Position numbers and translations under genes: made by a program | DNA from: Parcubacteria group bacterium | GTDB taxonomy: Bacteria > Patescibacteriota > Minisyncoccia > Phycocordibacterales > Phycocordibacteraceae | Direction: 5' to 3' | DNA: 62,652 nucleotides | Assembly (NCBI GenBank): GCA_028286545.1 | Contig: JAQBRJ010000006.1 | Span: 1 to 62,652 of the forward strand | Shown here: piece after piece, positions 871 to 62,420 of the stretch | Position numbering within the stretch: the stretch's first letter is position 1 | Layout: each line of letters begins with the position of its first letter | The notes under the pieces: generated by a model | Told to the model about the DNA's origin: nothing | What the model saw: the letters and a program-made list of their open reading frames with translations, nothing else | Database searches by the model: none

Positions 871-1500
871 CTATGGATAGAGCTCGAAGGTGGTCAGCGC
901 CGGGTCACAGGTGTTGAATGTGACCCGAAACATCCCGGCTTCCGTCAGATCGAGGTCGTCAAGGAATGCGCCGAGCTCCTCGTTTGCGCCCACGAGAGTC
1001 TCGCCGAGACCTTTCACGGCGAGCTGTATGTATAGCCCGTGCGCCGCGACGAAAATCGTCTGATCGGTTCGGCCCGCGAGGTAACCTGCAAGTGCGCAGC
1101 CAGCTCGCGTACCGATTCGACCAACCGGACTGTCGTTCCAGCCGACCTGGTGCCGCAGATTCAGCGGATGCGTGAGGTATGCGGATGGCGCTGCATTGCC
1201 GACCTCGTCGAAGATCGTATCGATGATCGCACCGTCGGGTCCCTCGGGTGTGTACAGTTCCTTCAGAAGAATGTAACGATCGAGCGGACGCATGGTCGCC
1301 CGTTGCGCCGTTTGAATGGCGCGCTGAGCGATCGAGCTGAACTCGCGGTCGAAGGTGAAAGATTCGAGGACCGGCCGACGCCGAAGGACTTGCTGGATAC
1401 CCTCATTGCTGAGATCCCGAATCAGGTCCCCGCGACGTGTCTTGTGACGAGCTGGATGCGCATTGCCGTGGCGCAAGCCGATTGTCGTTATGATGGCCAT
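871..1500 (-). CDS. Histidine phosphatase superfamily protein (SixA / phosphoglycerate-mutase-like branch)
   Basis: 209-aa ORF with an N-terminal LRHGNA (RHG catalytic motif), then DLIRDLSNEGIQQ, and a second His motif VAAHG. AAGGGAG lies 6 nt upstream of the ATG. G+C is visibly higher than in the neighbours. Confidence 0.7.
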   Translation of the reverse strand: MAIITTIGLRHGNAHPARHKTRRGDLIRDLSNEGIQQVLRRRPVLESFTFDREFSSIAQRAIQTAQRATMRPLDRYILLKELYTPEGPDGAIIDTIFDEVGNAAPSAYLTHPLNLRHQVGWNDSPVGRIGTRAGCALAGYLAGRTDQTIFVAAHGLYIQLAVKGLGETLVGANEELGAFLDDLDLTEAGMFRVTFNTCDPALTTFELYP

Positions 1501-1645
1501 TTCAGGCTCCCTTGTTCAAGTTTCATTGCCTCCCGTCGTGCGACGTAGGTCATGGACAATATAACACTTTAGAGTATTATTGTCAAATACCTCTAATATG
1601 CTATACCTAGCAGTACATTGCGTGCTTTAATTATGAAAAGCAGAT

Positions 1646-2584
1646 ATGGAGCTACTTAAACCCTTCAATCAACTCGGTAAAGACGACGCTGCGATTGCTG
1701 GTGGCAAGGGAGCGTCTCTGGGAGAGATGACCCAGGCTGGCATACCGGTGCCTCCAGGTTTCGTTATCCTCGCTGATGCGTTTGAACGGTTCATCATAGA
1801 GACCGACCTCACAACAGAAATAGATTCGATTCTCGGCAAAGTGAATCATCAGGAGATGCACACAGTTGATCATGCATCGGAGATGATACAAGGATTGATT
1901 TTGAACGTAGAGATGCCAACCGATCTGAAGGAAGAGATCGAGAAATCATTTAAGGATTTGAATACAGAGTTTGTGGCGGTTCGCTCGAGCGCAACGGCGG
2001 AAGACGGAGCGGAAGCAGCCTGGGCAGGACAGCTTGATACCTTCCTCAATACTACGGAGGAAACATTGCTTGAGAAAGTGCGTGAGTGTTGGGCGTCGCT
2101 CTTCACCCCGCGCGCGATCTTCTATCGCTTCGAGAAGGGAATGAATCTCCAGAAGATTTCGGTGGCAGTCGTAGTGCAGAAGATGGTTAATAGCGATACC
2201 GCAGGTATCGCGTTTTCCGTTCATCCTGTTACCGAAGACCATAACCAAATGATCATTGAGGCAGGCTTTGGTTTGGGTGAAGCAGTCGTCTCCGGACAAG
2301 TTACTCCGGACAGCTACGTAGTTACAAAAAGCCCTCGAACAATCGTTGATAAGAATATTAGTGAACAGGCGCAAGGACTGTATCGCAAGGCAGGGGGTGG
2401 TAGTGAATGGAAAGACTTACCAAAGGAGAAGGGTAGTTCTCAAGTGATCACAGACGCACAGATTCTCTCCCTCTCTGAAGTTCTCATCACTATTGAAAAC
2501 CACTATGGTTTTCCCGTAGATACCGAGTGGGCAATGGAGAATGGCGAGCTCTACATTGTGCAGAGTCGTCCAATTACAACGCTT
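1646..2584 (+). other. PPDK_N-type ATP-grasp (nucleotide-binding) domain of the giant ORF
   Basis: aa 1-313 carry all the hallmark motifs of the PEP synthase / PPDK / rifampin-phosphotransferase N-terminal domain. The domain ends at IVQSRPITTL. Confidence 0.85.
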
Positions 2585-5500
2585 CGAGCGTCTTCAACTG
2601 AAAGATCCATGTCCAAAAAGTTTCTGGACGCTATGGGCACTGATGAAATCTTCAAAATTGAAGGAGACTTCATTCCGTTACTCGTATTGATTGATTGGTT
2701 TAACTACCGTGACCAGCAAGGAAATATACAGAATCTCTATCCGGCCATGTGTTTCAAAAGAGACTCTACCGTAAACATCTATTGGAGTCTCACCAAATAT
2801 CGCCACGTATCCAAAGAATTCTTTCAGGCATATTTACAGGGTTCGCTCACCTTACCTGAGTATCAGAAAACATATGATGCTCTCAAGAATGCCATAGATA
2901 GCTTCTATACCTCGTATTATGTTTCTCCTGCTAAGGATGAAAAAGACCTGCTTGCGCGTCTCGATACGGCACATAACTTTCTGCGAGAGATTGACCTTGT
3001 GGCACTTTTCCTCGATGCGCTTGATCAAAAGACGATACGAGAAACGTTAGAAGAACAAAGCATACCGGTCGATCTTTCAAGCATATGGAGAATTTCTCAT
3101 ATTTTGGATACCTATTCATTCCATATAAAAAACAAGGAAGAGATCATTGCACAGCACACAAAACTTCCCGCATCTCTACAATACGTATACTCAAACTACG
3201 TACACATTCTTTCACCCCAAGAAACTATTACGAGAGCCGCGGCAGAAGATATCGATCGACTCAAGAAGGAAGTAGCGGAGAATAAAGCTGAAGCCTCAAA
3301 AAGTGGAGAGCGTAAGCGGGCTGAGGCAGCAAAACTCACGGAGGTTGAACAAAAAGTACTTACCTTTATTGATTACGCTGCAGAACTGCGCGACGACCGA
3401 AAAGCGTTGATTACAAAGTCCGATGTGATGCTTTTCAATCTCGTATCGGACCTTTACAAGCTCTGGGGTGTTCCTCAAGAACTTGTGGATGTGTCGATGG
3501 TAATGGACGTACTCAAGGGTAAAGAACATCTAGAGGCCATGCTTCCTGTGCTCAATGATCGTCTTGGGAAAACGGCAGTCTTCCTTACAAGCGCGCATGA
3601 ATATGAGGAAAATGACACCGAAACTCTAGACGAAGTTGAAGCGGCCTATATGAGGCAGCACACGCCTCACGATGTCACGTCGCTCAAAGGCGAGACAGCA
3701 TCCAGTGGTTTTGTCCGAGGTATCGTGCGAATCATAATCAAGCAGCAAGACTTCGATACGTTCAAAGAAGGGGAAGTGCTCGTTGCTGCAATGACACGCC
3801 CGGAGTTTGTGCCGCTTATGAAAAAGGCAGCGGCTATCGTAACTGATGAAGGTGGTATCACTAGTCACGCTGCAATCGTATCTCGTGAATTAGGAAAGCC
3901 GTGTGTAATTGGTACTCGCGTTGCGACACAAATACTCCACGACGGTGATGAAGTTGAAGTCGACGCTGACAATGGAATCATACGAATCCTAAAGAGTATT
4001 CTCTCCGAAGAAGAGAATAAGAAAGACGCGTTCTTTAATCTCGGTCGTTGGGTTGCTCCTGTTCTGGAATACGAAGCATGGCTGGAATGGTGCAATACTC
4101 CCGAATCGCGTGAAATGGACATTGTTCCGGATTCAGTAACTACGTATGTGCTGGATGGAAATTTCATGCTTGAAGAAGGTGGCGCCTACACTCAACTTAC
4201 TAATACGATCTTGGAAGAGTTTAACCGCGGCGAATATGCGACTGCCCAACACATTAATGAAGTAGCAGAAGCGTTGGCGAACGAATCGAATAATGCGGCT
4301 GACTCATACGGCCAGGCAGCAACACTGAAAGACTTTTTTAATACATTTCCACTCATACAAAGACTTCGCTTCCCCTGGACAGCATGCTTTGCGGTGAGTG
4401 ATGCGGCAGACATATATCTAAAGAATTACGCTGAAAAGAACGGTTTATCAGTAGACTCCTTAAGTTCACAAGTCCCTCAATTAGCGAATCCATTAACGGA
4501 TGATCAAAGAGCGTTGTTTGATTTCAAACAGCAGATTGAAAAATTAGACGCTAACTACAATCTTCAGGATATTAAAGAGATAGATTCGAAGCTTGCGGAA
4601 GGTATAATTAGCTATCAACAAAAGACAGAATACTTTGGGACACATCACTTCTGGGGTGAGCCGCGCACTGAAGAAAAGCTCATGGAGGCAATCAAAGAGG
4701 CTGTCCCAAGCGAGTTACAAGAAGTTGCGGGGCCTATTGATCTTACAGAATTGTTTAGCCTTTTGGCGGATACTACTAAGATTCGCATAGAGTGCGCGGA
4801 GAGTTCATCAAAGCTCGCATATGTATTTCGGTCTGCATTAACTAATCTTGCGAGCACCTATGGACTGGCCTACGAAGATATAATCTTCTTAACCACTGAA
4901 GAACTGCAAGCTCTAGATAAAAAATCTGCTGGTGAGATAGGAGCAATCATTTCCGAACGACAAAAAGGATACGGGCTTTGGAAAGAAGGTGAAACCATAC
5001 AGGTAACCGTAGGTACAGAACTTGAAAGTCAGCTCCAATCGTTTGGACTGAACGTGGACCACGGCGATGTTCAGGAGATCACAGGAAATATTGGCTGCAA
5101 AGGATTCGTGCAAGGAATCGTTGCCATTGTCTTAGTGCCTACGGACAATAAGAAAGTCTTGGATGGAATGATTCTTGTGGCGCCTGAAACTACGCCTGAT
5201 TTCGTTCCTGCCATGGGTAGGGCAGCAGCGTTCGTTACCGATCGTGGAGGAGTGACTTCACATGCTGCAATTATTGCTCGAGAAATGGGCAAGCCATGCA
5301 TCATTGGTACAAAAATAGCGACGCAAGTTCTCAAAGATGGGGATTTGGTGGAAGTCGATGCTAACACTGGGATTGTCAGGCTTCTCTCTAGGCAAAAAGG
5401 ATATACGTATAGTAAGGCGTATACTCGCGAGAATTGTCTTATTGCTATTCAGATTTGGGAAGAACATCAGTGTCATCGTTTAAAGGAGAAGTTTGGCGTG

Positions 5501-8500
5501 GCGGTGCCGCTTTCAATCTTTGATGCGTATCAAGGTGTAGCACGTGTGTATTATCGAGAAGATATTGATGATGCGTGGAGCTCTATTGTCACTGCCAAAG
5601 CTCAAGAAGACAGAAACTTCATACCAGAATTGATGACATGGTATGGAGAACAACTAGATACTCTCGAAGCTATTTGGCACAAGGGAACGCTATCGAGTGC
5701 TAAAGAATTAGATGAGCTTTTTGATCTCGCCTCATGGGCATGGGTAGGATTGTCTATCTCGTACTTCCTCCCGGGCATGGAAGGAATGAGAAAAGAAGAA
5801 CAGGAATTAGGAATGCAGTTGCGAGAACGATCTGCAGACTTCCTCGAGCTTACTGATCACGTAATTCAAGATACGCTTCGCATCTTGTACCCTGCACTCG
5901 GAGATTTAGTGAAATACCTCCGTATTGAGGAAGTTAGATCAGGAGATATTCCGGCCATCGAGATTCTCCGTGAACGAGAAAAGCATTATATCTATTATGA
6001 TTTCAAACTCTACACAAACACGACAATCGATTCACTCCTTAAAGAAAATAATTTCTCCATAGAAGAGGAAGTAGTTCCCACGAATGTTTCAGATATTAGT
6101 GGTCAGACAGCCATGACGGGCATTGCTAAAGGAAAGGTTCGCATCCTACATCGCAAAGCTGATATTTCTTTACTCCAGGATGGAGAGATTTTGGTCACGG
6201 CAATGACCACGCCTGATTATCTTCCCGCAATGTATAAAGCCGCTGCCTTTATCACAGATGAGGGTGGAATCACTTGTCACGCAGCCATTGTCGCTCGTGA
6301 GCTCGGTAAGCCATGTGTCATTGGTACCAAGATCGCAACACAAGTACTGCACGACGGTGATGAAGTTGAAGTGGACGCTGATAATGGAGTGGTCCGTATT
6401 CTCAAAAGTGCGAACACCGAAGCTGTTTTAGTTAAATGTTTCTCTAGAGATCATTCGCTCTTCTATTCATACGTTTGGCGCACCAGTAATTCTGAGAAGG
6501 GGAAGAGGTGGATAGGAACAAATATTGAAGAGGTATTATTTGTGCGACCAGAGGGTCAGGAGGTAGTAGATGTTTATTATTCAGAAAACGAATTTAAACT
6601 CTATGATCGGGCAATCAAGGATAAGATTCTGAGCGATGCACACTGGTTCGCAACCCTCGCAGCTTATTTTGAAAGTGAATGGCAGAAGATACTTCCGTAC
6701 ATACAAAAGAAGGAAATTCTCACACGCCAAGAACTCTCAGAATTTTATGACCATTGGGTTAATTGGTGGGAGCCAATGGCATTCATGATGCAGATTCCTG
6801 AAATTGAGGGAGTTTCTCAAGAGATCAAAGATCAAGCATTTATGCTTCGAGCCGAAACTCAAGAATATTCTGATAGTGGAGACAAGATGTTCCATGCATA
6901 TATGCAGAATGCACATCCTGAACTCTCAAAGTATTTCTCGGTGGTAACTCCTGAGGAAGTGTTTGGTGATACTTTCCCATCCGAATCGATTCTCGAAGCT
7001 CGTTTGGGTGGTTGGTACATGACCAATACTCATTTTGGACTAATCGGAGAATTGCCAAAGGCATTGAAAGAAAGATATTTTGTCCTCGAAGTCACACCAG
7101 TAAATGACACTACTGAATTAAAAGGACAGAGTGCATATAAAGGAATCGTTCGTGGCACGGTGCGCGTTCTAGCACGCCATGATCAAATATCAGAAGTACA
7201 AAAGGGTGAGATTCTTGTTACTGCCATGACCACGCCTGATTTCTTTCCGGCGCTTGAAAAGGCTTCTGCTTTCATAACGGACGAAGGAGGAATTACCTGT
7301 CATGCGGCAATCGTTGCTCGAGAAATGCAGAAGCCTTGTATTATCGGCACTAAATTTGCCACCCAGATTCTTAAAGATGGTGATGAAGTAGAAGTCGATG
7401 CAGACAATGGGGTAGTCCGTATTTTAAAGACAGCTGCAAGCGAAAGAATTGAGTTTATCAAAGAATACACGCGCGACACGACCCTTATCATTCAGCAGGC
7501 TTGGAGTGTCGTGCTTAAAAAGCATCGAAGCGAACTCGGCTTGCATGAATACGACAATCAAACGCTCGTTCTTCATTACCTCCATGACGGCGTGATAGAG
7601 GTATGGGAGAACCATAACTGGACACCTGCATTGATGAATGAAATCCTAAAGAGGAATACGGAAAGCGACACTACATTCAATGACCACATTGAAAAGTTCC
7701 TCAAGGGAATAACATTTTTAAAACCATATTGGGAACAAGGTTTCGTTAGTGATGCAGCAGAACTATCTTCCATAGTCGATCACGTATTTGAAACGATGTA
7801 TCACTTTGACTGGATGTACTATCCTGCGCTCGATGATCGTACACCATTGCCTATTCGAAACAGGGCTCGTGAGCTCCGAGATCAAGATATATTCTTCGAT
7901 CAAACTGACCGCTTCATTAGAAAGAGCCTACTGGCCATCTATCCTAATCTTCAAGGATACGAACAGTGCATACTTCGAGATGAAATTACTGCGCCGCCCT
8001 CTCTTGAAATACTTCGTACGCGTAAACAACACTTTATAGCAATGGGTGATGACGCTTCATATACTGGGACCATAGAGGAATACCAAAAAGAGCATCCCGA
8101 GATGCATTTTGCTGTCGATGCAGCTCCAATCCAAACGGCTACGTTAACCGGTCAGATCGGTAATAAAGGATATGCGAAAGGCATTGTTCGTATTATGAAG
8201 CGCAAAGAACAGATTCCCGATGCTCAAGAAGGAGACATTATTGTGTCGACCATGACTACTCCGGATTTCATTCCGGCCATGCAAAAGGCAGCAGCTATTG
8301 TTACGGACGAAGGAGGGATTACGTGTCATGCAGCAATAGTGGCTCGCGAAATGAACAAGCCGTGTGTGATAGGTACGAAATTTGCCACGCAACTCCTTAA
8401 AGATGGAGACTTCGTGGAGGTCGATGCAGACAACGGGGTAGTAAGAAAGATTGATAGGATTAGCTTCAAGAAATCGTATTCTCGAGATACCACATTGTTT

Positions 8501-10981
8501 ATGCAGGAGCTCTGGGCTAAAGGACTTATTGAACTCCCTGAAGCAAAATTTGGATGGAAGAATCCATATCTCCCGCTCGTAGCTCATTACGTTAATGATG
8601 GGGTTGTTGAGATATGGGAACACCAAGAAGCAATTTCGTGGCTCCTTGACCGGTTACTCCAGGAGAATAAGAAAGGTTCGGCTTTTTTGGAAGGCATCTT
8701 TAAAGAATATAAGGCACTCTTGAAGAAACTAAAGAAATTTCATAATAAGGAATCTCTATCAACCAAAGAGGCTGAAGAGTATGTAGATCTCATATACGAT
8801 GCTGCCTTCGCTATGACCTTGTTCTTTTACACGGGCTCAGACGAGCGAAGTCCAAAGGACGCACTCGAAATTTCTGTCAAAGCCCGTGAGATAGAAGACT
8901 TCTTTGCTGGTAATGATGTATTCGTAAGAAAGATCATTACCAATACGGCACACATTTCTGAAGAATTGGCAGGAGTCGTTCTTGCTGAAGAATTGAGTGC
9001 AAATGCGATACCTTCTTCTGAGACTCTTCAAAATCGACTTAAGAACTATCTTCTCATTGATGGGATGGAACGATGGACGAGTTCTCTCAAAGATTTTTCT
9101 ATAGCGTTCCCTGAATACATTTTCTTAGAGACAGAGGTAGAAGCGACCACTGAACTTCGTGGTCAATCAGCCTATAACGGAGTTGTTCAAGGCTCCGTAC
9201 GAATTGTTCGTAAACAGAGCGATATGGCAAAAGTTCTTGAAGGCAATATTCTCGTTTCGCCTATGACTACTCCTGATTTCCTTCCTGCCATGCTGCGAGC
9301 GGCAGCATTCGTAACGGATGAAGGAGGTATCACGTGTCATGCGGCAATTGTTGCTCGCGAGATGAAGAAACCTTGCGTAATAGGTACAAAAATTGCCACA
9401 CAGATTTTAAAGGATGGAGACGAAGTAGAGGTAGACGCAATCAACGGAATCGTTCGAATATTGAAATCGAACAGTGTAGTACGATCGCTCAGCAAAGAAG
9501 ACATTGTTATCGGTGATTGGGAATTTGAAGCGCAGCAGCGCGGTGAGCAACCAATCTTCCTCTGCGATCTCTTTAGTCGTGCCTTGGTTGGCATGATTCA
9601 TGAAATGACAGGAAAGAACGAATACTACGACTATCTCTTTACCGATTCGGACAAGCTCAACCACAGTCCCAAGCATCGAGATATCGTGTTGAACAAGACG
9701 CGCGAGGATATGCTCGATCCAGCAAAGAGAAAGGAATTCCTTCGGGGTTCAATAGAGATTCCTATGAGCTTCAATGCTGTTGCTGATGAAATTAATGAAA
9801 AGGTCAATGATTCTGTTTCAAACAAAGAGCTCGCACGACTCTGGAGAAATATGGATCGTGATTTCCTCAAGGTGATCCCATGGTTCTACTACCCGTGGTA
9901 TGTCTCGAAAGAGAATATGCTCACTGACTTTGTTAAAGCTGGGTTAGAGAAGCATCGTACTGAGATTGAAAAGGTCTGCGATATGGACGAAGCGCTTTTG
10001 GCGATAGTATTCCCGATAAAGAAAACGAACTTCCAGCTTGAGCAAGATGAGATGCTCGGACTCGTAACCATTGCTGAAGAGAATTCTGACTTTACAAACG
10101 ACGCCGTATTTAAGCAGCATGCTGCAGAGTACCTCAAGAAATATGACTACCTCACGACGTTCATACTTTCGCCGATACTCCCAATGACCTATGAACAACT
10201 CGTTGAACGGGTCAGTCAGAATGTAAAAGAATCATTCAAAGACAACTATGAGATTCAAAAGGAGGCAACACTCAAGAATCAGGAACGCGCAGAGCAGATT
10301 CTGAAGATAGTTTCTGATGACAACGAGATCATGCCGTGGATTGAGGACTCACGAGAACTTGGCTACGTGCTTACGGCAGGAATTGAAGAAGCGTATATGG
10401 CGTCTGCTCGCTATCTACCGTTTATACAATTCGTTGCAAAGCGAATCGGTGTGACATTTGAAGATACGAAATATCTTCTCTCTAATGAGATTGCCACCGC
10501 GCTAGAAGAAGATAAAAAGATTCCAGCAGAACTCATTGATGAGCGTCGTGACGGCTTTGTTCTCATGATGAAAGACGGCGTGCAATACACACTCTTTGGA
10601 AAGAAGGGTCATGAACTTAGCGCATGGATTGATAGCGAACTAAATAAGGTAGATGCATCGATCACAGAATTTACGGGGCAGCGTGCGTGTAAGGGCTTTG
10701 CAAAAGGGAAAGTTCGAATTGCAACCACTCCCGCACAAGCACATCTTCTTCAGGAAGGGGAGATACTCGTGTGTCCCATGACAAACCCTGACTACGTGCC
10801 TGCTATGCGCCGCTCTGCAGCTATCGTCACGGACGAAGGCGGATTGCTTTGCCACGCAGCAATTATGTCTCGTGAGTTCAACAAGCCCTGTATCATCGGC
10901 ACAAAGATTGCAACGCAGCTTTTGAAGGATGGAGATATGGTTGAGGTTGACGCAGACAAGGGAATTGTAAGAAAGCTATAA
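1646..10981 (+). CDS. Giant (3,111 aa) ATP-grasp / poly-swivel phosphotransferase: one PPDK_N domain plus seven PEP-utilising-enzyme mobile phosphohistidine domains
   Basis: Single uninterrupted ORF. The N-terminus carries [39 protein letters not shown] and VQSRPIT. There are seven copies of GG(I/V/L)(T/L)(S/C)HAAI..RE..KPC(V/I)IGT....L.DGD.VEVDA. No PEP/pyruvate TIM-barrel motifs are present. Confidence 0.92.
   Translation: [3111 protein letters not shown]
3683..3997 (+). repeat. Swivel phosphohistidine domain copy 1 of 7 (catalytic His codon 3866-3868, aa 741)
   Basis: [15 protein letters not shown]...[69 protein letters not shown]. Confidence 0.9.
5078..5392 (+). repeat. Swivel phosphohistidine domain copy 2 of 7 (His codon 5261-5263, aa 1206)
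   Basis: [15 protein letters not shown]...[67 protein letters not shown]. Confidence 0.9.
6095..6409 (+). repeat. Swivel phosphohistidine domain copy 3 of 7 (His codon 6278-6280, aa 1545)
   Basis: [15 protein letters not shown]...[69 protein letters not shown]. Confidence 0.9.
7118..7432 (+). repeat. Swivel phosphohistidine domain copy 4 of 7 (His codon 7301-7303, aa 1886)
   Basis: [15 protein letters not shown]...[69 protein letters not shown]. Confidence 0.9.
8144..8458 (+). repeat. Swivel phosphohistidine domain copy 5 of 7 (His codon 8327-8329, aa 2228)
   Basis: [15 protein letters not shown]...[67 protein letters not shown]. Confidence 0.9.
9155..9469 (+). repeat. Swivel phosphohistidine domain copy 6 of 7 (His codon 9338-9340, aa 2565)
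   Basis: [15 protein letters not shown]...[69 protein letters not shown]. Confidence 0.9.
10670..10978 (+). repeat. Swivel phosphohistidine domain copy 7 of 7 (His codon 10853-10855, aa 3070); the protein ends with it
   Basis: [15 protein letters not shown]...[67 protein letters not shown] followed by the stop codon. Confidence 0.9.
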
Positions 10982-50941: not shown

Positions 50942-50976
50942 GTGCTCGTACTTCGTTATCTTTTAAATATTCATTC

Positions 50977-52509: not shown

Positions 52510-52534
52510 ACCTTACTTACTCAATTACTTACAT

Positions 52535-53209: not shown

Positions 53210-53213
53210 GCCT

Positions 53214-54752: not shown

Positions 54753-54772
54753 GTCTTGAATAACGAAATCCT

Positions 54773-55503
54773 TTGGGAGTCATACTTTGGTATACTCTAC
54801 CCATGGGAAACGAATCTCCATTTATTATCGAAGATTTTCAAGGCTTCAAAGTTGTTCGAGATGATCTATACGAAGGCGGTACAAAACGACGTGCTTTTAG
54901 CCGTTTGATCGATTCAATTACGGAAGATGAATTGGTGTATGCCTGCGACTACTATGGCGCAGCCGCCTATGCTATTGCTCTTACCGCTCAAGAGGCAGGG
55001 AAGAAAGTCATGCTCTTTTATTTATCTCCGAAGCAAGAAACTGCTCTATTTAATAAAGCGGTAAGTCTTCCAAACGTTACGTATGAAATCGTGGAAGAAG
55101 CAAAGACTCAAATAGAAGCGAGTATACGTGCAAAGGAATATGCAAAAGAACATAACGCAAATTCCTACCCATAGGATTAGACTTCCCAGAGTTTGGAGAA
55201 GAGCTAGAGAAGGTAGTTAAGTCTGCAAGTATAAAAGCTCCAGAGATATGGGTTATGGGCGGATCTGGGACTCTAGGTAGAGCGTTACAAAGAGCGTATC
55301 CAAATATCCCCGTAAATATTGTGAGCGTTGGAACGGCAAACTTTAACGGTGGAGATAATAAAGTGTACGAAGCTCCAGAAGCATTGGATGAGGAGGCAGA
55401 GATCAAGCCGCCCTACAATTCTTCTTCTCACTACGACGCAAAGACCTGGAGGTTTGTCCTAGAGCACGCCAAGCCTGGCTCTTATATTTGGAACGTAGCC
55501 TAG
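54773..55503 (+). pseudogene. Fold-type-II PLP-enzyme-like gene (ACC deaminase / D-cysteine desulfhydrase family-like) split by a frameshift
   Basis: ORF 54773..55174 (VRDDLYEGGTKRRAF...) stops at TAG 55172-55174. The reading continues in another frame, open from 55156 through the track ORF 55255..55503 (..IGLDFPEFGEE...VMGGSGTLGRALQ..). A 1-nt shift within 55156-55172 would fuse them. Confidence 0.5.
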
Positions 55504-55517
55504 ACCTCTTAAAAAAT

Positions 55518-56954
55518 ATGAACACTTCTGAATTCACATCACCAGTACTAAAAGACTTTGACCCAGAAGGGTATCACTTCTTCGGTCTGTGGAAGCAGAA
55601 TCTATTTTCAGCATGTTTTTGGGCAGGCTGTTATAGCAAAGAGGTTGCGGATAGGCTGGGAATTGAGACAGAAGAATCTGGAGTTGCGGTACTTACAGAA
55701 GGTAATTTCTTTATCAAGGATTCAGAACTCGCAAACATAAGGAAGCAAATTAGAGAGAAGATTGAAACCAAAGATGAGGCTTTCTTCAAAAATATGGTTA
55801 AGGTCTCCGATGATCATTTTAAAGAAGCTGTTGCGTTTACTGAAATATTCAAAAATAAAGAGCTAACACCAGAAACTTTTGAAGAGTATCTTGTTCTGGG
55901 AAAGAAAATTACTTTTCTTTGGATGCTGGGAGCAGAGCAGTTTTCTGAACATGCTCAAGAAAAATTAACTGAAGTTGCTCTAGCTGAGTCATTTCCCGTA
56001 GAACGTATACCTGAGATCATTCCAAAATTTGATACTCCACTCAATCAGCAGCATAGAGAAATGATTGAGCTCAAAAAAGAGGTCGGCAGTCTTTCACTCG
56101 AAGAAATAAAAAAGAATAAAGAACTCTACTCAAAAATCGAAGATCATACCAAACGTTTTGGATGGATTGAGATCGCAAACCTCGTAGGTGATCCTCTTAC
56201 GGTTGAAAGATTGTACGAGCAAATTATTCATGCAAAAGATGAACATGCTCAAGAAGCCAAGAACCTGCCTACGATTTCAGAGAACCTCGCATTTCATGCA
56301 AGATGTGTGAGTTATTGTGGCTACCTGCGACAAGCAGGAGCTGAATATTTCTTTATGATGTCAGAAAAGGCCCAACCCTATTTAATGGCTCTTGGAGAAA
56401 AATTTGGACTTTCATATCCTGAATTTTTACTACAAATTGATGTTGAGATAATCGAAACGTTGAAAGGAAATATCAGTGCAGATATTTTGAAAGCTAATGT
56501 TAAACGCAGAGAAGCAATGGACATAATCCTGTTTGCCGGGAAAGGAGAGGAGGTTTTCTTTACCGAGGAACCTGAAGATATTGAGAAGCTGAAAAAGCTA
56601 ATGCTTCCTCAAGCTGATCTCACGAGTAAGGAAATAAAAGGTCAGATTGGTAACAAGGGAACATATACTGGTCCAGCAAAGATAATCATGAACACTCATG
56701 ACTTTGCCAAAATGCAGACTGGCGATGTGCTTGTCTCAACCATGACAACACCGGATTTTGTGGTGCTTATGCATAAGGCAGGAGCCATCGTAACTGACAT
56801 CGGAGGCATGCTCTGCCACGCCGCGATTGTCTCAAGAGAAATAAATAAGCCTTGTGTCATAGGTACGAAATTTGCCACACAGATTCTTAAGGACGGTGAT
56901 CTCATAGAGGTAGATGCAGATAAGGGAGTAGTCACTATTCTCGAAAGACCATAA
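55518..56954 (+). CDS. Free-standing helical-domain plus swivel phosphohistidine-domain protein (no ATP-grasp, no PEP-binding domain)
   Basis: About 478 aa from ATG 55518. C-terminal IKGQIGNKGTYTGPAKII...MTTPDFVVLMHKAGAIVTDIGGMLCHAAIVSREINKPCVIGTKFATQILKDGDLIEVDADKGVVTIL, with the His codon at 56817-56819. Confidence 0.88.
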   Translation: MNTSEFTSPVLKDFDPEGYHFFGLWKQNLFSACFWAGCYSKEVADRLGIETEESGVAVLTEGNFFIKDSELANIRKQIREKIETKDEAFFKNMVKVSDDHFKEAVAFTEIFKNKELTPETFEEYLVLGKKITFLWMLGAEQFSEHAQEKLTEVALAESFPVERIPEIIPKFDTPLNQQHREMIELKKEVGSLSLEEIKKNKELYSKIEDHTKRFGWIEIANLVGDPLTVERLYEQIIHAKDEHAQEAKNLPTISENLAFHARCVSYCGYLRQAGAEYFFMMSEKAQPYLMALGEKFGLSYPEFLLQIDVEIIETLKGNISADILKANVKRREAMDIILFAGKGEEVFFTEEPEDIEKLKKLMLPQADLTSKEIKGQIGNKGTYTGPAKIIMNTHDFAKMQTGDVLVSTMTTPDFVVLMHKAGAIVTDIGGMLCHAAIVSREINKPCVIGTKFATQILKDGDLIEVDADKGVVTILERP

Positions 56955-57028
56955 AACAATAACTGAGGTGTAAAACTCTCCCGCAATGGTTCTTGCCAGC
57001 GGCATGATCCTAGACCATTATTAGGAAT

Positions 57029-57673
57029 ATGGGAATGGAAGGAAATCCAAATGAAAGGTCTAGCTCTAAGATAAGCAGAAGAGCTTTTTTAGGTGGAGCG
57101 GTCGCAATCGGAGCACTAGCCGCATTGGGTTCTAAAGTTCGTGTTGAGAAAGAACCGATTGACCACACACAAGATCACGATCTTGATTTGTTCAATAAAG
57201 CGTACGATTTACCACCAGAATATAAAAAGAACATTACGGATTGGATGCACGATGATCTCTTTAAAGATCCTCGAGTAATCACACAGCTGAATGACTTTAT
57301 TGATTCGATAGAAAAAGGAAAGGAGCCTGTGTACCAAGGGTCTGTTAGATTTACGCGCAACGATTCCTTGCCACAGATTTTCAAGGAAGGTAATGACGAG
57401 TTTCGATTCTCAATCAATACTAATTTCAAATTTACTGATGGCGTAAGTAATGGCGAGAAACTAAATGAAGGAGAAGTCGTGATTGATTGTGGAGTATCAA
57501 TGAACGGTTCTGATTCAGAAGAGCTTGGCTCTTACAGAGATCACGGCGTTATCATAGGCAGAAGTGGTGGAATTTTTGGAATGTCCTTCATCTATAACGT
57601 ACATACTGGCTTAATGAGAAAGTTTCCATCAGAGGGCTTCGCTGAGGGTTTGTCCAGAATATTCACGCCATAG
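57029..57673 (+). CDS. Hypothetical Tat-signal secreted protein
   Basis: 214 aa. Twin-arginine signal SRRAFLGGAVAIGALAALGS. No family recognised. Confidence 0.6.
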   Translation: MGMEGNPNERSSSKISRRAFLGGAVAIGALAALGSKVRVEKEPIDHTQDHDLDLFNKAYDLPPEYKKNITDWMHDDLFKDPRVITQLNDFIDSIEKGKEPVYQGSVRFTRNDSLPQIFKEGNDEFRFSINTNFKFTDGVSNGEKLNEGEVVIDCGVSMNGSDSEELGSYRDHGVIIGRSGGIFGMSFIYNVHTGLMRKFPSEGFAEGLSRIFTP

Positions 57674-57704
57674 ACTAACCTGCGTTTATTTCAGATTGAC
57701 CGAA

Positions 57705-57733
57705 AGGGGAGCAAATAGTACAATATGACCAAT
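57705..57733 (+). promoter_or_regulatory. Candidate promoter upstream of typA
   Basis: TTGACC (57705-57710), a 17-nt spacer, then TACAAT (57728-57733). It is followed by small hairpins GCCU-UUCG-AGGC and CCGCC-UGCG-GGCGG and a U-rich run, about 100 nt before ATG 57841. Confidence 0.4.
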
Positions 57734-57840
57734 GCCTTTCGAGGCTCCGCCTGCGGGCGGCTTTGCTTTTTGCATAGCAGTTTGGCCTCATTTCAGCGTT
57801 ATTTAACCTTATTATCTCGCCTTTTAATTAATCTTTAGTC

Positions 57841-59631
57841 ATGGAAATTCGTAACATCGCCATCATCGCCCACGTGGACCACGGCAAGACCACGCTCACC
57901 GATGCCATCATGAAGCAGACCGGCGCTGCTGCTGAAGGCGCGTCCATGGACAGCAACGCTCTCGAACACGAGCGCGGTATCACCATTTACTCAAAGAACA
58001 CCTCTATCGAGTACAAGGGAACAAAGATCAACATCGTCGACACCCCAGGCCACTCCGACTTCGGTTCAGAAGTTGAACGCGTGCTTCGTTCTATCGACTC
58101 AGTGCTTTTGATCGTCGACGCACAGGAAGGTCCGATGCCACAGACTCGCTTCGTGCTTAAGAAGTCACTTGAGCTCGGCCTCAAGCCTATCGTTGTTTTG
58201 AACAAGATCGATAAGCCCGCTGCAGATCCAGACCGCGCTGAAGAGCAAGTTCTCGAACTCTTCCTCGAACTCGGTGCGTCTGACGAACAGTCTGATTTCA
58301 CAACGGTGTACGCAATCGGCCGTGAAGGCGTTGCAATGCGTAAGCTAGGTGACGAGCGCAAAGACCTCACACCACTTCTCGATGTTATTCTCGAGCAGGT
58401 TCAGCCAACCTCAAGCGACGAGAGCTCAGCGATGCCACTCAAGCTCCAGACCTTCAACCTTGCCTACGATAACTTCCTCGGACGCCTCGCTATTGGCCGC
58501 GTATACGAAGGTGTCGTAAAGGCAGGTCAGGCAGTGATCGTGAAGAAGCCTAACGGCGAAGCGCGTAATGCAAAGATCACTAAAGTCTTTACCTTCAAGG
58601 GTATCGAGCGCACCGAAGTTCCTGAGGCAGTAGCAGGTGACATCGTTATCATCGCAGGAATCAGTGATGCATACATTGGTGAGACAGTAACGACTGATGC
58701 ATCAGTTGAGCCAATGACCGCTATCGCTATCGATGAGCCGACAATCACCGTGAACTTCCTCGTGAACAACTCACCATTCGCAGGTCGCGAAGGTAAGTAC
58801 GTGACGAGCCGTCAGCTCCGCGAATACCTCGAGAAGGAACTCGAAGTGAACGTCGGACTCAAAGTGGACTTCGTTTCACCTGACGCCTTTAAGGTTTCAG
58901 GACGCGGCGAGCTCCACATCGCTATTCTCCTTGAGAACATGCGTCGTGAAGGATACGAAATGCAGGTGAGTCAGCCTCAGGTAATTATTCGCGAGGAAGA
59001 AGGCCAGAAGCTCGAACCATACGAGGAAGTTACTATCGATACTCCTTCGGAATACCAGGGTTCAATTATTGAGCGCCTCGGCACTCGCGCATTCGTTCTT
59101 CAGAACCTTGTGCAGCACGACAACTCAGTACGCCTTACGCTCGAAGGTCCTACCCGCGGACTCCTCGGCTACCGCAACCAGTTTGTGGTGGACACCAAGG
59201 GTGAGGGAATCCTCTCGTCACGCGTTATCGGCTTCAAGCCATACGCTGGAGAAATCAAGAAGCGTCAGGTTGGTTCAATGATCTCAATGGCAACCGGAAA
59301 GGCACTCGGTTACGCTCTTTGGAGCATGCAGGAGCGAGGTGTGCTCTACATCACTCCGGCTACGGAAGTGTATGAGGGTATGGTTGTGGGTAACACGAGC
59401 AAGGGCGAAGAAATGGTTGTGAACCCTACGAAGGGTAAGAACCAGAGTAACGTCCGCTCTTCGGGTATGGATGAGGCTATCAACCTCGTGCCGGCCTTCA
59501 CACTCACTATCGAGCGTGGTCTTGAAGTCATGACTGACGATGAGTATCTCGAGATCACACCGTCGAGCGTTCGTTTGCGCAAGCAGGGACTTACAGAAAG
59601 CGATCGTTCTCGCGGGAAGCGCAGCAACTAG
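57841..59631 (+). CDS. typA: Translational GTPase TypA/BipA
   Basis: 596 aa. IRNIAIIAHVDHGKTTL, DTPGH.DF and NKID. The domain order is typical of BipA. Confidence 0.95.
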   Translation: MEIRNIAIIAHVDHGKTTLTDAIMKQTGAAAEGASMDSNALEHERGITIYSKNTSIEYKGTKINIVDTPGHSDFGSEVERVLRSIDSVLLIVDAQEGPMPQTRFVLKKSLELGLKPIVVLNKIDKPAADPDRAEEQVLELFLELGASDEQSDFTTVYAIGREGVAMRKLGDERKDLTPLLDVILEQVQPTSSDESSAMPLKLQTFNLAYDNFLGRLAIGRVYEGVVKAGQAVIVKKPNGEARNAKITKVFTFKGIERTEVPEAVAGDIVIIAGISDAYIGETVTTDASVEPMTAIAIDEPTITVNFLVNNSPFAGREGKYVTSRQLREYLEKELEVNVGLKVDFVSPDAFKVSGRGELHIAILLENMRREGYEMQVSQPQVIIREEEGQKLEPYEEVTIDTPSEYQGSIIERLGTRAFVLQNLVQHDNSVRLTLEGPTRGLLGYRNQFVVDTKGEGILSSRVIGFKPYAGEIKKRQVGSMISMATGKALGYALWSMQERGVLYITPATEVYEGMVVGNTSKGEEMVVNPTKGKNQSNVRSSGMDEAINLVPAFTLTIERGLEVMTDDEYLEITPSSVRLRKQGLTESDRSRGKRSN

Positions 59632-59729
59632 GTATTTTTGCCTGCGGGCGCATTGTGTGGTTTTATATGAATGCAAAGACCCATCCGGGTCTTTTGTTCA
59701 TTTCAACCACCCTTGAAAGGGGAAATAGC

Positions 59730-60872
59730 ATGACTAATAATGGCACCCGCGCTTATTTCGATGCGCTCGTCGCGAAAGTCCATTCCTATGATGGATACCG
59801 CGACCCATACGGGTTCGGTATTGGCATATGCCATGTCGACGAGGGAGAGAACTTCCTCGACGGATACTTTGCGCTGCCAAACTACATGGAGAATCTCGCA
59901 ACCGCCGCGGTAATCGCCGAACACACGGGCTATCGTCGTGGCAATGCGACGTATGTCTTGACCCTGCAACAAATGTTTATGATTCGCGAGGAATTCCGTT
60001 GCTTCGACGGTGACGGTAAACCGCATCCGAATATTGACGTGATGGATAGTATCAAACGCGTTCCCAAGGATTCACACGATCGTCGGAAGCTGGTCGCGAC
60101 GTTCATCGGCCATCCCGAAGACGACGACGAAACGCCGTGGAGCGTGCCGGAGATTTATCTCCGGCTTCATTTGCTGAGTCACCGGAAGGTTTTGCCGAAC
60201 GAAATCGGCGTGACTCCCGGGAAGATCATGGGGCAACTTCCGAATGTGGCGTGGACCAGTGAAGGGCCAATCGCAACCAACGAAGTGAACGGCCGCATCC
60301 TTGCTGCTCGAGTAGCAGGTAATGCGCTTCGGGTGTATGGCGTCGATAGGCTGCCGCACATGTGCGACTATGTCGTGCCTGAAGGCGTGCGTATCGCCGA
60401 CTCGGCCCGGGTTCGTCTCGGTGCCTATGTCGGCGTCGGCACGACGATGATGCCTTCGGGCTTCATCAACTTCAACGCGGGAACGCGTGGGAGGGCGATG
60501 ATCGAAGGGCGTGTGAGCCAGGGCGTGATCGTCGGTGACGGTTCTGACCTGGGCGGTGGCGCATCGACACAGGGTACGATGTCCGGCGGAAGTAACGTGC
60601 AAGTCTCGATCGGCGAACGCACACTCATCGGCGCTCTTGCCGGTACGGGTATCTCACTCGGCGACGACTGTATCGTTGCCGCTGGCGTATATATCATGCC
60701 GAGCAATGAAATCACCGTCCGTGATCAGAACGGGGCGGTGATTCGCCAAGCAAAGGTGTATGAATTCTCCGGGCAGAGCGGCTTGAAGTTTAACCGCGGC
60801 GAGCACGGCGAACTACAAGTATGCCCGAACGATAAGGCGGTCGTGCTTAACCCGCTCCTTCATTCGAACTAG
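59730..60872 (+). CDS. dapD: 2,3,4,5-tetrahydropyridine-2,6-dicarboxylate N-succinyltransferase, long (Pseudomonas-type) form
   Basis: YLRLHLLSHR, LPNVAWT, DYVVPEGVRIADSARVRLGAYVG.GTT.M..GF.NFNAGT.G..MIEGRVS.GV.VG.GSDLGGG.ST.GT.SGG and a C-terminal LN..LHSN match long-form DapD as I recall it. AAAGGGGA lies 6 nt upstream of ATG 59730. G+C is 36/60 at 60421-60480. Confidence 0.8.
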   Translation: MTNNGTRAYFDALVAKVHSYDGYRDPYGFGIGICHVDEGENFLDGYFALPNYMENLATAAVIAEHTGYRRGNATYVLTLQQMFMIREEFRCFDGDGKPHPNIDVMDSIKRVPKDSHDRRKLVATFIGHPEDDDETPWSVPEIYLRLHLLSHRKVLPNEIGVTPGKIMGQLPNVAWTSEGPIATNEVNGRILAARVAGNALRVYGVDRLPHMCDYVVPEGVRIADSARVRLGAYVGVGTTMMPSGFINFNAGTRGRAMIEGRVSQGVIVGDGSDLGGGASTQGTMSGGSNVQVSIGERTLIGALAGTGISLGDDCIVAAGVYIMPSNEITVRDQNGAVIRQAKVYEFSGQSGLKFNRGEHGELQVCPNDKAVVLNPLLHSN

Positions 60873-60896
60873 GTTCCTCCATACAGGAACACTCAG

Positions 60897-60926
60897 GGCG
60901 GCATCGTTAGATGCCGCCTATTTTTA
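60897..60926 (+). terminator. Intrinsic terminator after dapD
   Basis: GGCGGCAUC-GUUA-GAUGCCGCC followed by UAUUUUUA. Confidence 0.75.
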
Positions 60927-61788: not shown

Positions 61789-61800
61789 TATTCATATTTC

Positions 61801-62178
61801 ATGACTTCACCTATACTCGGACTTCGTACTACCATCTATAAAGTTTCTGACCTCGCGAAGGCGAAAGAATGGTATTCAAAAACTTTCGCAGCGACGCCCT
61901 ACTTTGATGAACCGTACTATGTAGGGTTTGAGATTGGTGGATTCGAGCTCGGTCTACAGCCTGAAGACGCACCGAAAGGCGAGAACGTTGCGGTCTTCTG
62001 GGGCGTTGAAGATATTCAAACTGAGTACGAACGATTTCTTGCGTGTGGTGCTACGGCAGTTGAGCCACCCATGAACGTCGGTGGCGAGATAATGGTCGCA
62101 ACCCTCAAAGACCCGTGGAACAATTTGCTCGGGCTTATTTATAATCCTGAATTTAAGGGATTTACTCCAGCGCCGTAG
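61801..62178 (+). CDS. VOC family protein (glyoxalase-like)
   Basis: 125 aa. LRTTIYKVSDLAKAKEWYSKTF and ...ATLKDPWNNLLGLIYN. Confidence 0.7.
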   Translation: MTSPILGLRTTIYKVSDLAKAKEWYSKTFAATPYFDEPYYVGFEIGGFELGLQPEDAPKGENVAVFWGVEDIQTEYERFLACGATAVEPPMNVGGEIMVATLKDPWNNLLGLIYNPEFKGFTPAP

Positions 62179-62261
62179 TGCAAAGCTCGGGGGAATTGAC
62201 GTGTAGCTGAGAGGGAGTATTCTATGCCCAGCCCGTCAATTAAGGCGGGAGGAGAAGTGCC

Positions 62262-62420
62262 ATGAGTTCCACCGAAGACGGTGTCTTTATCGAAAGCGCG
62301 AAGCGCAGCCAGCGCAATAACGCCATCGCCGCCGGCGCATTTGTCGTCGTCTGCGCAGTGGTCGGTGTTGTGCTCAAGTGGGACGCCATCGCCGCGTTCT
62401 TTTCGCACCACCTCGGCTGA
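62262..62420 (+). CDS. Possible 52-aa small membrane protein (below the ORF-track cut-off)
   Basis: My own translation: MSSTEDGVFIESAKRSQRNNAIAAGAFVVVCAVVGVVLKWDAIAAFFSHHLG. GGGAGGAG lies about 7 nt upstream. GC-rich. A 12-bp hairpin lies 25 nt downstream. Confidence 0.4.
   Translation: MSSTEDGVFIESAKRSQRNNAIAAGAFVVVCAVVGVVLKWDAIAAFFSHHLG

Follow-up and report, generated by a model that had tools for sequence, protein, structure and literature searches.

Short Shine–Dalgarno-led cassettes among SD-less genes point to two gene-expression architectures in a Parcubacteria genome

Why do a few short, often GC-rich genes with canonical Shine–Dalgarno (SD) sites stand among genes that lack such sites in a Parcubacteria contig? 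We addressed this in one stretch of 62,652 nt (contig JAQBRJ010000006.1, assembly GCA_028286545.1), hereafter the window. The initial annotation read the SD-led genes as repeated single-gene acquisitions from SD-using, higher-GC donors or, alternatively, as a distinct expression class. We favour, at a probability of about 0.6, two gene-expression architectures in one genome, in which the SD-led units, here called cassettes, would form an old, SD-dependent class.

Host lineage and scoring of start codons

TypA of the window is 93% identical to that of a Paceibacterota MAG, its closest relatives are Patescibacteria/Paceibacterota without exception, and the window is, judging by its sequence, part of a Parcubacteria/Paceibacteria genome (candidate phyla radiation, CPR). 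SDs were scored at 64 long-ORF starts as duplex energies against ACCUCCUUU in the region −20 to −3, and starts above −6 kcal/mol were counted as lacking an SD; the 3′ end of the host 16S rRNA lies outside the window. The starts 22722 and 59730 were chosen downstream of the longest-ORF start, which weakens the count of SD-like sites, but both choices are correct: the public protein record begins at 22722, and in orthologs the position equivalent to 59730 is preceded by in-frame stops. One comparison set comprised 72 TypA-anchored loci with crude ORF calling; loci from other genomes are given L numbers.

Start signals of the bulk genes

About 55 of the 64 starts lack an SD, in agreement with the initial annotation, and none of the genes it named as SD-less has a GGAG-type motif at 5–12 nt. 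A TANNNT −10 box with its first base 12–14 nt before the ATG precedes 14 of the 64 genes (3.9 expected, p = 3e-5), with a sharp peak at −12 and −13 (nine and six genes against a background of 1.4 per position) that recurs in six close loci and in the 72 TypA-anchored loci. This placement suggests leaderless mRNAs. In the architecture proposed here, the bulk genes would have no SD and nearly no intrinsic terminators; many would carry this −10 box alone, often TGn-extended, and probably yield leaderless mRNAs, and in others, which start 2–20 nt after the gene before them, translation probably proceeds by coupling or re-initiation. Leaderless transcription of the bulk genes would thus exist beside SD use by the cassettes. 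Our literature search gave no published account of leaderless initiation in CPR.

The SD-led genes of the window

GGAG-type SDs at a spacing of 6–8 nt were found in seven to eight window genes. Seven of the SD islands proposed initially have this spacing (the phosphatase, MOSC, 109-aa, 103-aa, 121-aa, DapD and 52-aa ORFs; Table 1), whereas the AGGAG of the 147-aa ORF stands only 1 nt before the first ATG, with a second ATG (20834) at 7 nt, and this ORF is doubtful as a class member. SD-like sites thus occur at 7 of 64 starts against 3.3 expected (5.2% of random ATGs), a roughly twofold excess (binomial p = 0.05) that is weak to marginal in the window alone.

The claim that the islands are GC-richer was borne out on average, GC being 0.56 against 0.47 and GC3 0.63 against 0.46 (Mann–Whitney p ~1e-5), but the shift is not universal in the class: it is clear in only five SD-led genes (z = 2.4–4.5), and the 147-aa ORF (z = 0.0), the 121-aa ORF (z = 0.65) and the MOSC gene, with a mild deviation (z = 0.84), are without it. 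Island composition is shifted at every codon position, G and C are both raised at fourfold sites, and arginine is preferred over lysine. The inverted orientation noted at first sight was confirmed (4 of 7 SD genes on the minus strand against 7 of 57 others, p = 0.014), as were hairpin-plus-T-run terminators, which follow every main island but few other genes. Four −35/−10 promoters of cassettes (phosphatase, MOSC, 109-aa and 103-aa) match 10–11 of 12 consensus positions, and one matches 9. Each cassette would then be an autonomous unit with a −35/−10 sigma-70 promoter, a leader of 30–60 nt, a short ORF whose ATG follows a GGAG-type SD at 6–8 nt, and a strong terminator, often inverted relative to its neighbours, and such genes may make up about 10% of the total.

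Table 1. Cassettes and reference genes, in window coordinates
Feature	Position	Strand	Details
SixA-like histidine phosphatase (His_Phos_1)	871–1500	−	Pfam match; GC 0.60, GC3 0.68; SD AAGGGAG 1507–1513
His_Phos promoter	1558–1586	−	sigma-70 TTGACA-17-TATATT, 11/12, with TG; leader ~50 nt
His_Phos intrinsic terminator	796–824	−	hairpin + T-run
Giant PPDK_N + 7x PEP-utilizers gene	1646–10981	+	native-type, no SD; conserved divergent partner of His_Phos cassette
147-aa ORF	20397–20840	−	native composition; hairpin + T-run downstream
MOSC cassette	22656–23503	+	promoter CTGACA-17-TATATT 22656–22684; SD AAGGAG 22708–22713; ORF 22722–23453; terminator 23480–23503; Pfam domain; GC3 just +0.05
109-aa secreted-protein cassette	25127–25567	−	promoters 25567–25530; SD AGGAG 25504–25508; ORF 25167–25496; terminator 25159–25127; GC3 0.62, K/(K+R) = 0.09
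Leaderless-type example	26976–26991	+	TATAAT starting 13 nt before ATG of 26989–27657
103-aa orphan cassette	44892–45333	−	promoter TTTACA-16-TATTAT 45333–45306; SD GAGGAG 45269–45274; ORF 44949–45260; terminator ~44928–44892; GC3 0.67
121-aa Cys-rich ORF (possible member)	49991–50406	−	ORF 50027–50392; SD AAGGGAG 50400–50406; terminator present
DapD cassette	59654–60919	+	conserved TGn-extended −10-like motif TGTGTGGTTTTAT 59654–59666; leader hairpin 59675–59694; SD GAAAGGGGA 59715–59723; ORF 59730–60872; terminator 60896–60919; GC3 0.65; Pfam
Candidate 52-aa membrane ORF	62196–62420	+	promoter-like TTGACG-16-TATTCT 62196–62223; SD GGGAGGAG 62247–62254; ORF 62262–62420; GC3 0.75

As first reported, no integrase or transposase was detected among 53 Pfam-scanned proteins (a set without the two ABC exporters, ABC-F, the RND pump, its adaptor and TypA), and no direct repeats flank the islands. 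The islands have no DNA-level match in the plasmid collection and no viral relatives were found. The 109-aa, 121-aa, 147-aa and 52-aa ORFs have no known homologs; the coding scores of the first two are near zero, and composition of the 121-aa ORF is unshifted and its score ambiguous, leaving it a possible member. No exact-sequence entry exists in the protein collection for the 109-aa, 147-aa and 52-aa ORFs or for 45932–46039, which is a putative small ORF only.

Conservation of the cassettes in related genomes

Four families were compared across genomes: DapD, the SixA-like phosphatase, the 103-aa orphan and a 121–126-aa family present in the relatives only. The SD is kept in 11 of 13 orthologs of these families in other genomes, against a background of 5–10% (p ~1e-9 to 6e-11), and these orthologs share just 26–64% protein identity, so that synonymous sites are long saturated. 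The SD would thus be maintained by selection, and we infer that it is read by a canonical anti-SD. GC3 of the orthologs is again offset, by +0.13 to +0.30; over 12 gene/genome pairs from three window families the offset is constant (+0.195±0.054), and cassette GC3 correlates with host GC3 (r = 0.75, p = 0.005). Two families keep synteny as well. The phosphatase has only three detectable homologs, each adjoining the same giant gene and, in L084, L086 and L087, having the same SD and GC offset; the order ABC_tran_Xtn/His_Phos/giant gene is kept in L086 and the His_Phos–giant gene pair also in L084 and L087, and the intergenic region is ~75–80% conserved among the window, L084 and L086. Since cassette genes are alike in related genomes, they appear to represent a long-standing second expression mode rather than fresh imports. 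The distinct expression class that the initial annotation had offered as its alternative is thus supported by ortholog SDs, the constant GC3 offset and synteny.

Other genes in the relatives were consistent with this to varying degrees. In nine relatives' loci, SD-led genes other than the queries have a GC3 difference of +0.079 against 0.001 (p = 0.002). Over the 72 TypA-anchored loci, a terminator follows 32% of SD genes against 17% (p = 0.001–0.008), with no effect in a control window, and SD and TANNNT at −12 exclude each other; the SD–GC3 link is weak there (18.5% against 7.7%, p = 0.056, with crude ORF calling).

Alternative explanations

The cassettes might instead belong to a clade-wide pool that circulates laterally, possibly with an unsampled GC-richer reservoir, their GC being maintained by frequent replacement or recombination such as GC-biased gene conversion, and their signals persisting for self-expression at any landing site or as relics where no anti-SD exists. 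We regard this as unlikely, though it accounts for several observations. TypA–DapD synteny is common to L081, L091 and L093, but DapD of L083 lies at a different locus, antisense, and cassette presence and order downstream of TypA vary among the window, L001, L081, L091 and L093. DapD identities are star-like (window–L093 63.6%, window–L091 54.0%, L081–L091 59.9%), in conflict with TypA, YceG and PIF1; the joint rise of G and C at fourfold sites is expected from gene conversion, not from translational selection; and in L041, a TypA relative at 69% identity, SD-like motifs occur on GC3-richer genes despite a 16S rRNA that lacks CCUCC and ends in GGATCACTACATTTT instead. On the other hand, the His_Phos–giant gene pair is conserved in place, as is its promoter region, GC3 tracks the host and therefore implies long residence, and neither recombination sites nor repeats nor mobility genes turned up. 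To our knowledge, a 20-point GC3 offset is also far above the gene-conversion effects reported in bacteria. What appears to survive of the mobility idea is that individual cassettes are acquired, lost or relocated within the clade, given the relocated, antisense DapD of L083 and the differing content downstream of TypA.

Recent independent acquisition of each island, with its features as unameliorated donor traits, is highly improbable. It would fit the shift at all codon positions, with G and C up at fourfold sites and arginine over lysine, and the canonical, 'foreign-style' expression signals; DapD and MOSC are unusual functions in a CPR genome, and none of the 80 GTDB representatives, the closest (L001–L004) included, has DapD within 10 kb of TypA. 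However, it fails for every island with comparable homologs: the closest DapD relatives (54–65% identity) are on Parcubacteria-type contigs, three of them with the TypA–DapD synteny, and thus of the same affiliation as the neighbouring genes, whereas matches outside the clade reach ≤48%; the phosphatase and 103-aa families are nearly clade-restricted; and the best MOSC matches are at ≤30% identity. Host-tracking GC3, SDs conserved between such divergent orthologs, and the lack of plasmid matches, viral relatives, mobility genes in the scanned proteins and flanking repeats also stand against it.

Least probable of all is an artefact in which GC-rich stretches yield fewer stops and more GGAG, and short antisense ORFs are spurious: the SD excess of only about twofold, the missing protein entries and the near-zero coding scores would suit it, but Pfam domains in DapD, His_Phos and MOSC, the alignment of the 103-aa ORF with two homologs and its structural model, the uniform SD spacing, ortholog conservation at p ≤1e-9 and negative control-window tests oppose it, and we rejected it for DapD, His_Phos, the 103-aa ORF and the 121–126-aa family.

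Under the two-architecture reading, the cassettes would be long-standing residents of the clade and a separately regulated class dependent on SD, gained, lost or moved singly, with the offset of ~+0.2 at third codon positions as a stable class property. The constant offset and the lysine-to-arginine shift look like a mutational or origin signature, which a pure expression-class model does not explain.

Comparison with known systems

A close mixed-initiation type is 'group C' of GeneMarkS-2 (Mycobacterium, Deinococcus and others). As there, a −10 box lies directly upstream of many starts, implying leaderless mRNAs, beside a leadered, SD-bearing set; unlike there, SDs are found in only ~10% of genes and are absent from operon-internal genes, and the SD set, in a CPR lineage, is also marked by −35 promoters, terminators, inversion and a constant GC3 offset. 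Genomes mixing leaderless and SD-led genes have reportedly been described by Lomsadze et al. 2018, Zheng et al. 2011 and Cortes et al. 2013. The cassettes share atypical composition, short genes, opposite orientation and patchy presence at a locus with classical genomic islands, but they are single genes without mobility genes, tRNA targets or direct repeats, their nearest homologs are in the same clade, and their composition offset is conserved and follows the host.

In Bacteroidota, initiation is said to be SD-independent, rpsU being among the few genes with a strong SD (Jha et al. 2021; McNutt et al. 2023). The likeness is a lineage that ignores SDs overall and has a handful of conserved strong-SD genes, which may be a translationally regulated set; here, however, nothing points to bS21/bS18/bS6 occluding the anti-SD, the SD genes encode accessory enzymes and small proteins rather than ribosomal ones, and bulk starts appear leaderless in place of A-rich leaders. 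Tsurumaki et al. 2022 reported that the CCUCC anti-SD of 16S rRNA is absent in part of Parcubacteria, a loss on the rRNA side with no mRNA-side signals described (PMC9297842). The window belongs to the same phylum-level group, most of its genes lack an SD, and the 16S rRNA of L041 fits that pattern, but canonical SDs persist in a conserved minority of genes, an argument for SDs still being read, by this clade at least or by something else.

Among the cassette families, the 103-aa orphan has only two homologs, both remote, among 1.84 billion representatives, and its predicted fold, from a model of moderate confidence (pLDDT 68), weakly resembles tautomerase/MIF.

Shine-Dalgarno-led genes as autonomous transcription units

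The best reading of the window is that of a conserved, autonomous expression class led by Shine-Dalgarno (SD) sites within a mainly leaderless Parcubacteria genome, with gain and loss of its single-gene cassettes inside the clade. Starts of the 64 non-overlapping long ORFs were scored by the duplex energy of ACCUCCUUU against positions -20 to -3. Most scored poorly (55/64 above -6 kcal/mol), and none of the genes listed as SD-less in the initial annotation has a GGAG-type site 5-12 nt from its start, confirming that most genes lack an SD. Seven of the genes that it had listed as SD-led reach -6.5 or lower at 6-8 nt spacing, as tabulated below; another listed gene, 20397-20840, is doubtful, with AGGAG only 1 nt before its first ATG and 7 nt before its second. 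Within the window alone the SD excess is weak, about twofold (7/64 starts against 5.2% of random window ATGs, or 3.3 expected; p=0.05).

The SD genes are complete classical transcription units with leaders of ~30-60 nt, judging by promoter positions. Four of them (871, 22722, 25167 and 44949) have promoters with 10-11 of 12 consensus matches at the proper distance upstream, and a strong hairpin plus T-run terminator, rare elsewhere in the window, follows every island, as had been noticed from the sequence for the five minus-strand ones. Across 72 loci anchored on TypA in GTDB species representatives (crude ORF calls), a terminator lies 3' of 32% of SD genes vs 17% (p=0.001-0.008), and the enrichment showed no effect with a control window. 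The described antisense placement is reflected in a minus-strand excess (4/7 SD genes vs 7/57 others, p=0.014). The proposed SD/non-SD dichotomy is real and goes further than described, since the type of promoter covaries with leader, SD, terminator, orientation and composition.

Features of the window; GC3 z is the z-score of GC at third codon positions
Feature	Coordinates	Strand	Promoter	Product or content	GC3 z
SD-led gene	871-1500	-	TTGACA-17-TATATT, with TG	SixA-like His_Phos_1 phosphatase	3.3
SD-led gene	22722-23453	+	CTGACA-17-TATATT	MOSC protein	0.84
SD-led gene	25167-25496	-	two overlapping matches	109-aa secreted protein, Cys-containing	2.35
SD-led gene	44949-45260	-	TTTACA-16-TATTAT	103-aa orphan; weak tautomerase/MIF-like model (pLDDT 68, TM ~0.4-0.5)	3.2
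SD-led gene	50027-50392	-		121-aa Cys-rich ORF	0.65
SD-led gene	59730-60872	+		three-domain DapD	2.9
SD-led gene	62262-62420	+	weaker match, 9/12	52-aa membrane ORF	4.45
Doubtful SD gene	20397-20840				0.0
Giant gene region	871-10981			3111-aa protein with its divergent His_Phos_1 partner
AHSA1 gene	23463-23993			GTG start
MOSC terminator	23480-23503
GIY-YIG gene	33339-33602			87 aa, stand-alone
Tandem repeat	34983-35150			two copies, period ~93 nt
Copy 1 promoter	34983-35010		TTGACA-16-TATAAT
Copy 1 hairpin	35025-35053
Copy 2 promoter	35076-35103		TTGATC-16-TATAAT
Copy 2 hairpin	35118-35146
ORF in tandem-promoter region	35133-35417			coding score negative
LexA-like S24 peptidase/DinB pair	35368-37238
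RNase_T/GIY-YIG fusion	37249-38730
YceG-TypA gap	49978-57840			~7.9 kb
PEP-utilizers protein	55488-56954
TypA	57841-59631
DapD leader	59654-59729

Probable leaderless starts among the SD-less genes

The position of the first base of a TANNNT motif has a sharp peak at -12/-13: 9 and 6 window genes have it there, where the background is 1.4 per position, and the peak recurs in six close relatives (20 against 2.1) and in the TypA-anchored loci L005-L080 (73 and 72 against 13-18). The motif lies at -14 to -12 in 14 of the 64 window genes, where 3.9 are expected (p=3e-5), and six of these 14 have a TGn extension. Since a -10 box that ends 7 nt short of the ATG puts transcription initiation on the A or right beside it, bulk genes with TANNNT near -12 would have leaderless mRNAs. 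About 24 other genes, none with an SD, start 2-20 nt past the preceding gene and are probably translated by coupling or re-initiation. In the 72 TypA-anchored loci (crude ORF calls), genes with an SD and genes with TANNNT at -12 are mutually exclusive sets. These start signals suggest that Paceibacteria make wide use of leaderless mRNAs; our literature search turned up no description of leaderless initiation in the CPR.

The -10 box ~6-8 nt before many starts, seen in the window, the relatives and the 72 loci, is a feature of GeneMarkS-2 group C. In that group, SD sites are expected on leadered genes, including operon-internal ones; here they mark 7-8 autonomous cassettes, and the ~24 closely spaced genes have none.

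Two further observations concern start positions. TANNNT starts exactly 12 nt 5' of the ATG in about one-quarter of genes across the 72 TypA-anchored Patescibacteria loci. The GTG from which the AHSA1 gene would start precedes the MOSC terminator, and the true start is probably a downstream ATG that follows a TATACT box.

Conservation and turnover of the cassettes

An SD of -6.3 or lower is kept in 11 of 13 orthologs of cassette genes, against a background of 5-10% (p ~1e-9 to 6e-11), and this conservation suggests that the SD is read in the clade of the window. Together with the cassettes' own promoters and terminators, it favours the alternative offered in the initial annotation, a distinct expression class.

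The best homologs of DapD form a tight group at 54-65% identity, all others being at or below 48%, and four of the group lie on Parcubacteria-type contigs. The order PIF1-YceG-...-TypA-DapD-...-DEAD-DsbA is common to the window and the homolog-bearing loci L081 (GCA_964446735.1), L091 and L093, and in L083 DapD stands alone and inverted, flanked by MscL and DUF1761. Upstream in-frame stops confirm the ATG start. The SD is GAGGAGGG in L081 (-12.1), scores -6.3 in L083, is weak in L093 (-4.7) and is missing from L091. In all five loci, the window included, GTGTTTTTAT lies ~60 nt upstream of DapD, followed by a hairpin and then the SD region. A more distant CPR-type contig (L096, DapD 47% identity) has the SD GAAGGAGG (-12.1) among leaderless-type neighbours. 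Within the window leader, GTGTTTTTAT reads as a TGn-extended -10-like motif. No Rfam family, rRNA included, was matched in the window or its seven closest loci, which leaves the DapD leader without a riboswitch call and the clade without a 16S; the leader could comprise only a promoter and an upstream terminator, or it could be regulatory.

The His_Phos gene yielded just three homologs, at 40-46% identity. All three adjoin a giant PPDK_N/PEP-utilizers gene and are SD-led (-7.4 to -12.2), and in L086 a 228-aa ABC_tran_Xtn gene lies on the other side, matching the window. The window, L084 and L086 are ~75-80% identical across the divergent intergenic region and the -35/-10 promoter within it; blastn of the His_Phos region against a plasmid collection gave no match. 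Searched against 1.84 billion representatives, the 103-aa ORF gave two remote homologs, both SD-led (-8.2 and -6.9) and strongly GC3-shifted; one of them is inverted with respect to every neighbouring gene. Proteins of 121-126 aa form a fourth family, which adjoins TypA/DapD in L001, L081 and L091, again has promoter, leader, SD and terminator in this order, and exceeds the host median in GC3 by 0.08 to 0.22.

The set of cassettes downstream of TypA varies: DapD only in the window, the 126-aa gene only in L001, the 121-aa gene then DapD in L081, DapD then the 126-aa gene in L091, and an unrelated SD-led 180-aa gene then DapD in L093. DapD lies within 10 kb of TypA in none of 80 GTDB representatives, and its identities are star-like and discordant with those of TypA, YceG and PIF1. 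Given this variation, the cassettes act like modules that the members of the clade can do without one at a time and possibly exchange.

The giant gene and the SixA-like His_Phos_1 gene form a divergent pair in four genomes (the window, L084, L086 and L087). The giant protein combines PPDK_N, seven PEP-utilizers (phosphohistidine swivel) domains and an Epimerase_2-like stretch, and the phosphatase is probably its dedicated phosphohistidine phosphatase partner. The window encodes another PEP-utilizers protein elsewhere.

Composition and the question of foreign origin

The initial annotation favoured repeated acquisition of single genes from SD-using, higher-GC donors. SD genes are indeed richer in GC (0.56 vs 0.47) and GC3 (0.63 vs 0.46; p ~1e-5), and five of them show the host-atypical composition of foreign islands (871, 25167, 44949, 59730 and 62262; z 2.4-4.5). 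The claim that most islands are GC-richer holds for these five and not for 20397, 50027 and 22722 (z of 0.84 or less). For three window families, the GC3 offset is +0.195±0.054 (12 gene/genome pairs), and the GC3 of the islands increases with that of the host (r=0.75, p=0.005); a constant offset that tracks the host fits long residents under an extra GC-ward force, not fresh arrivals from a common pool. Non-query SD-led genes in the relatives' loci are also shifted (+0.079 vs 0.001, p=0.002), and in the 72 TypA-anchored loci SD and GC3 are weakly linked (p ~0.05; crude ORF calls).

For DapD, His_Phos and the 103-aa protein, the closest homologs sit on contigs that appear CPR-like by synteny or start-codon signals, which speaks against a foreign taxon. 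Unlike foreign islands with their mobility signatures, the islands lack flanking direct repeats and the window lacks tRNA genes, and, as first reported, no integrase or transposase was found among 53 Pfam-scanned proteins (the two ABC exporters, ABC-F, RND pump, adaptor and TypA lay outside the scan). PHROGs and NCBIfam searches with the islands gave nothing meaningful, viral contigs scanned for 25167 and 50027 held no relatives, and MOSC yielded one metagenome match at 29% identity and, by tblastn against the plasmid collection, alphaproteobacterial matches at 30% or less. Recent import from foreign high-GC donors thus fails, by the refuting test set in the initial annotation, for every testable island, the orthologs in relatives having the same signature and synteny.

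The window itself (overall GC ~47%) is placed by TypA, which is 93% identical to that of a Candidatus Paceibacterota MAG (L001). Its best 80 matches among GTDB species representatives are nearly all labelled Patescibacteria/Parcubacteria, a few having another or no phylum label; the exact sequence has no entry in the protein collection. Several window genes have orthologs in L001-L004 (44-88% identity), most within 10 kb of TypA there.

That GC-rich genes need an SD owing to structured start regions is weakly supported by folding energies over +1 to +40 (-6.3 vs -4.3, p=0.025), with no difference over -25 to +35. Translational selection for high GC3 is unlikely, since TypA, a native gene with raised GC3, is C/T-rich and G-poor, whereas the islands raise both C (0.385 vs 0.235) and G (0.305 vs 0.205) at 4-fold sites, with lower A; arginine also replaces lysine in the islands, and the ribosomal and chaperone genes of L083 and L084 are not GC3-rich. 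Chimeric assembly is unlikely, given that independently assembled genomes repeat this pattern of single genes. Integron-like or repeat-flanked cassettes are ruled out by the lack of a common 3' element and of direct repeats.

The anti-SD and the reach of the SD-led class

The CCTCCT anti-SD has been detected in only 48% of Parcubacteria, and its absence overlaps the group lacking uL1 (Tsurumaki et al. 2022, PMC9297842). On the DapD cassette contig L083, NusG-L11 is directly followed by Ddl, with no L1 between; the window contains no ribosomal protein operon. In Bacteroidota-type SD-independent initiation the anti-SD is present but sequestered and rpsU has a strong SD; the window carries neither rpsU nor a 16S. 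A distant Wildermuthbacteria relative (L041, TypA 69%) encodes a full-length 16S (3267-4641) of the anti-SD-less type: its 3' end (4626-4641) is GGATCACTACATTTT instead of GGATCACCTCCTT, with CCUCC replaced by UACAU, and no CCTCC follows for ~300 nt. Textbook SDs nevertheless precede 5-7 of the 21 genes of its locus, and those genes are GC3-richer. We consider it unlikely that an SD-dependent regulon of GC-shifted single-gene cassettes is kept even where, as in L041, the 16S has lost CCUCC. If such lineages did keep one, GGAG would be recognized without the 16S tail, or through an undescribed 16S 3' extension or variant, and the constant offset of +0.2 GC3 would mark a class-specific mutational or recombinational regime.

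The CAU within the UACAU of the L041 tail is the complement of AUG. Near this 16S, CTCCTCC occurs only at ~4940, ~300 nt downstream, just before a tRNA gene at 4961.

CPR bacteria are a large share of bacterial diversity, almost all uncultured and with stripped-down ribosomes, and their translation start is essentially unstudied. The window and ~95 related loci suggest that Paceibacteria are mostly leaderless and SD-free, with a small conserved set of SD-led cassettes of classical layout and distinct composition. This yields concrete gene-calling rules for CPR MAGs, crude ORF picking having put one cassette (L001 11899-12279) on the wrong strand, and GC or SD outliers should not be taken as recent transfer in HGT screens. 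The role of the SD in lineages reported without an anti-SD becomes a testable question; what becomes of the SD there, and what lies behind the stable GC offset, make the case worth further study.

Other features of the window

The YceG-TypA gap, only ~0.66 kb in L001 (9337-10001), holds in the window the 50027 ORF, MarR, two HlyD-type adaptors, an MFS transporter, a PEP-utilizers protein and others. Near the LexA-like/DinB pair lie a stand-alone GIY-YIG gene and an RNase_T/GIY-YIG fusion. Upstream of the pair, two tandem copies of a perfect or near-perfect sigma-70 promoter are each followed, ~15 nt downstream, by the identical 29-nt hairpin TGAACGGYATCCTAAATGGGTGCCGTTCG and a T-rich tail, and resemble a pair of tiny sRNA or decoy units.
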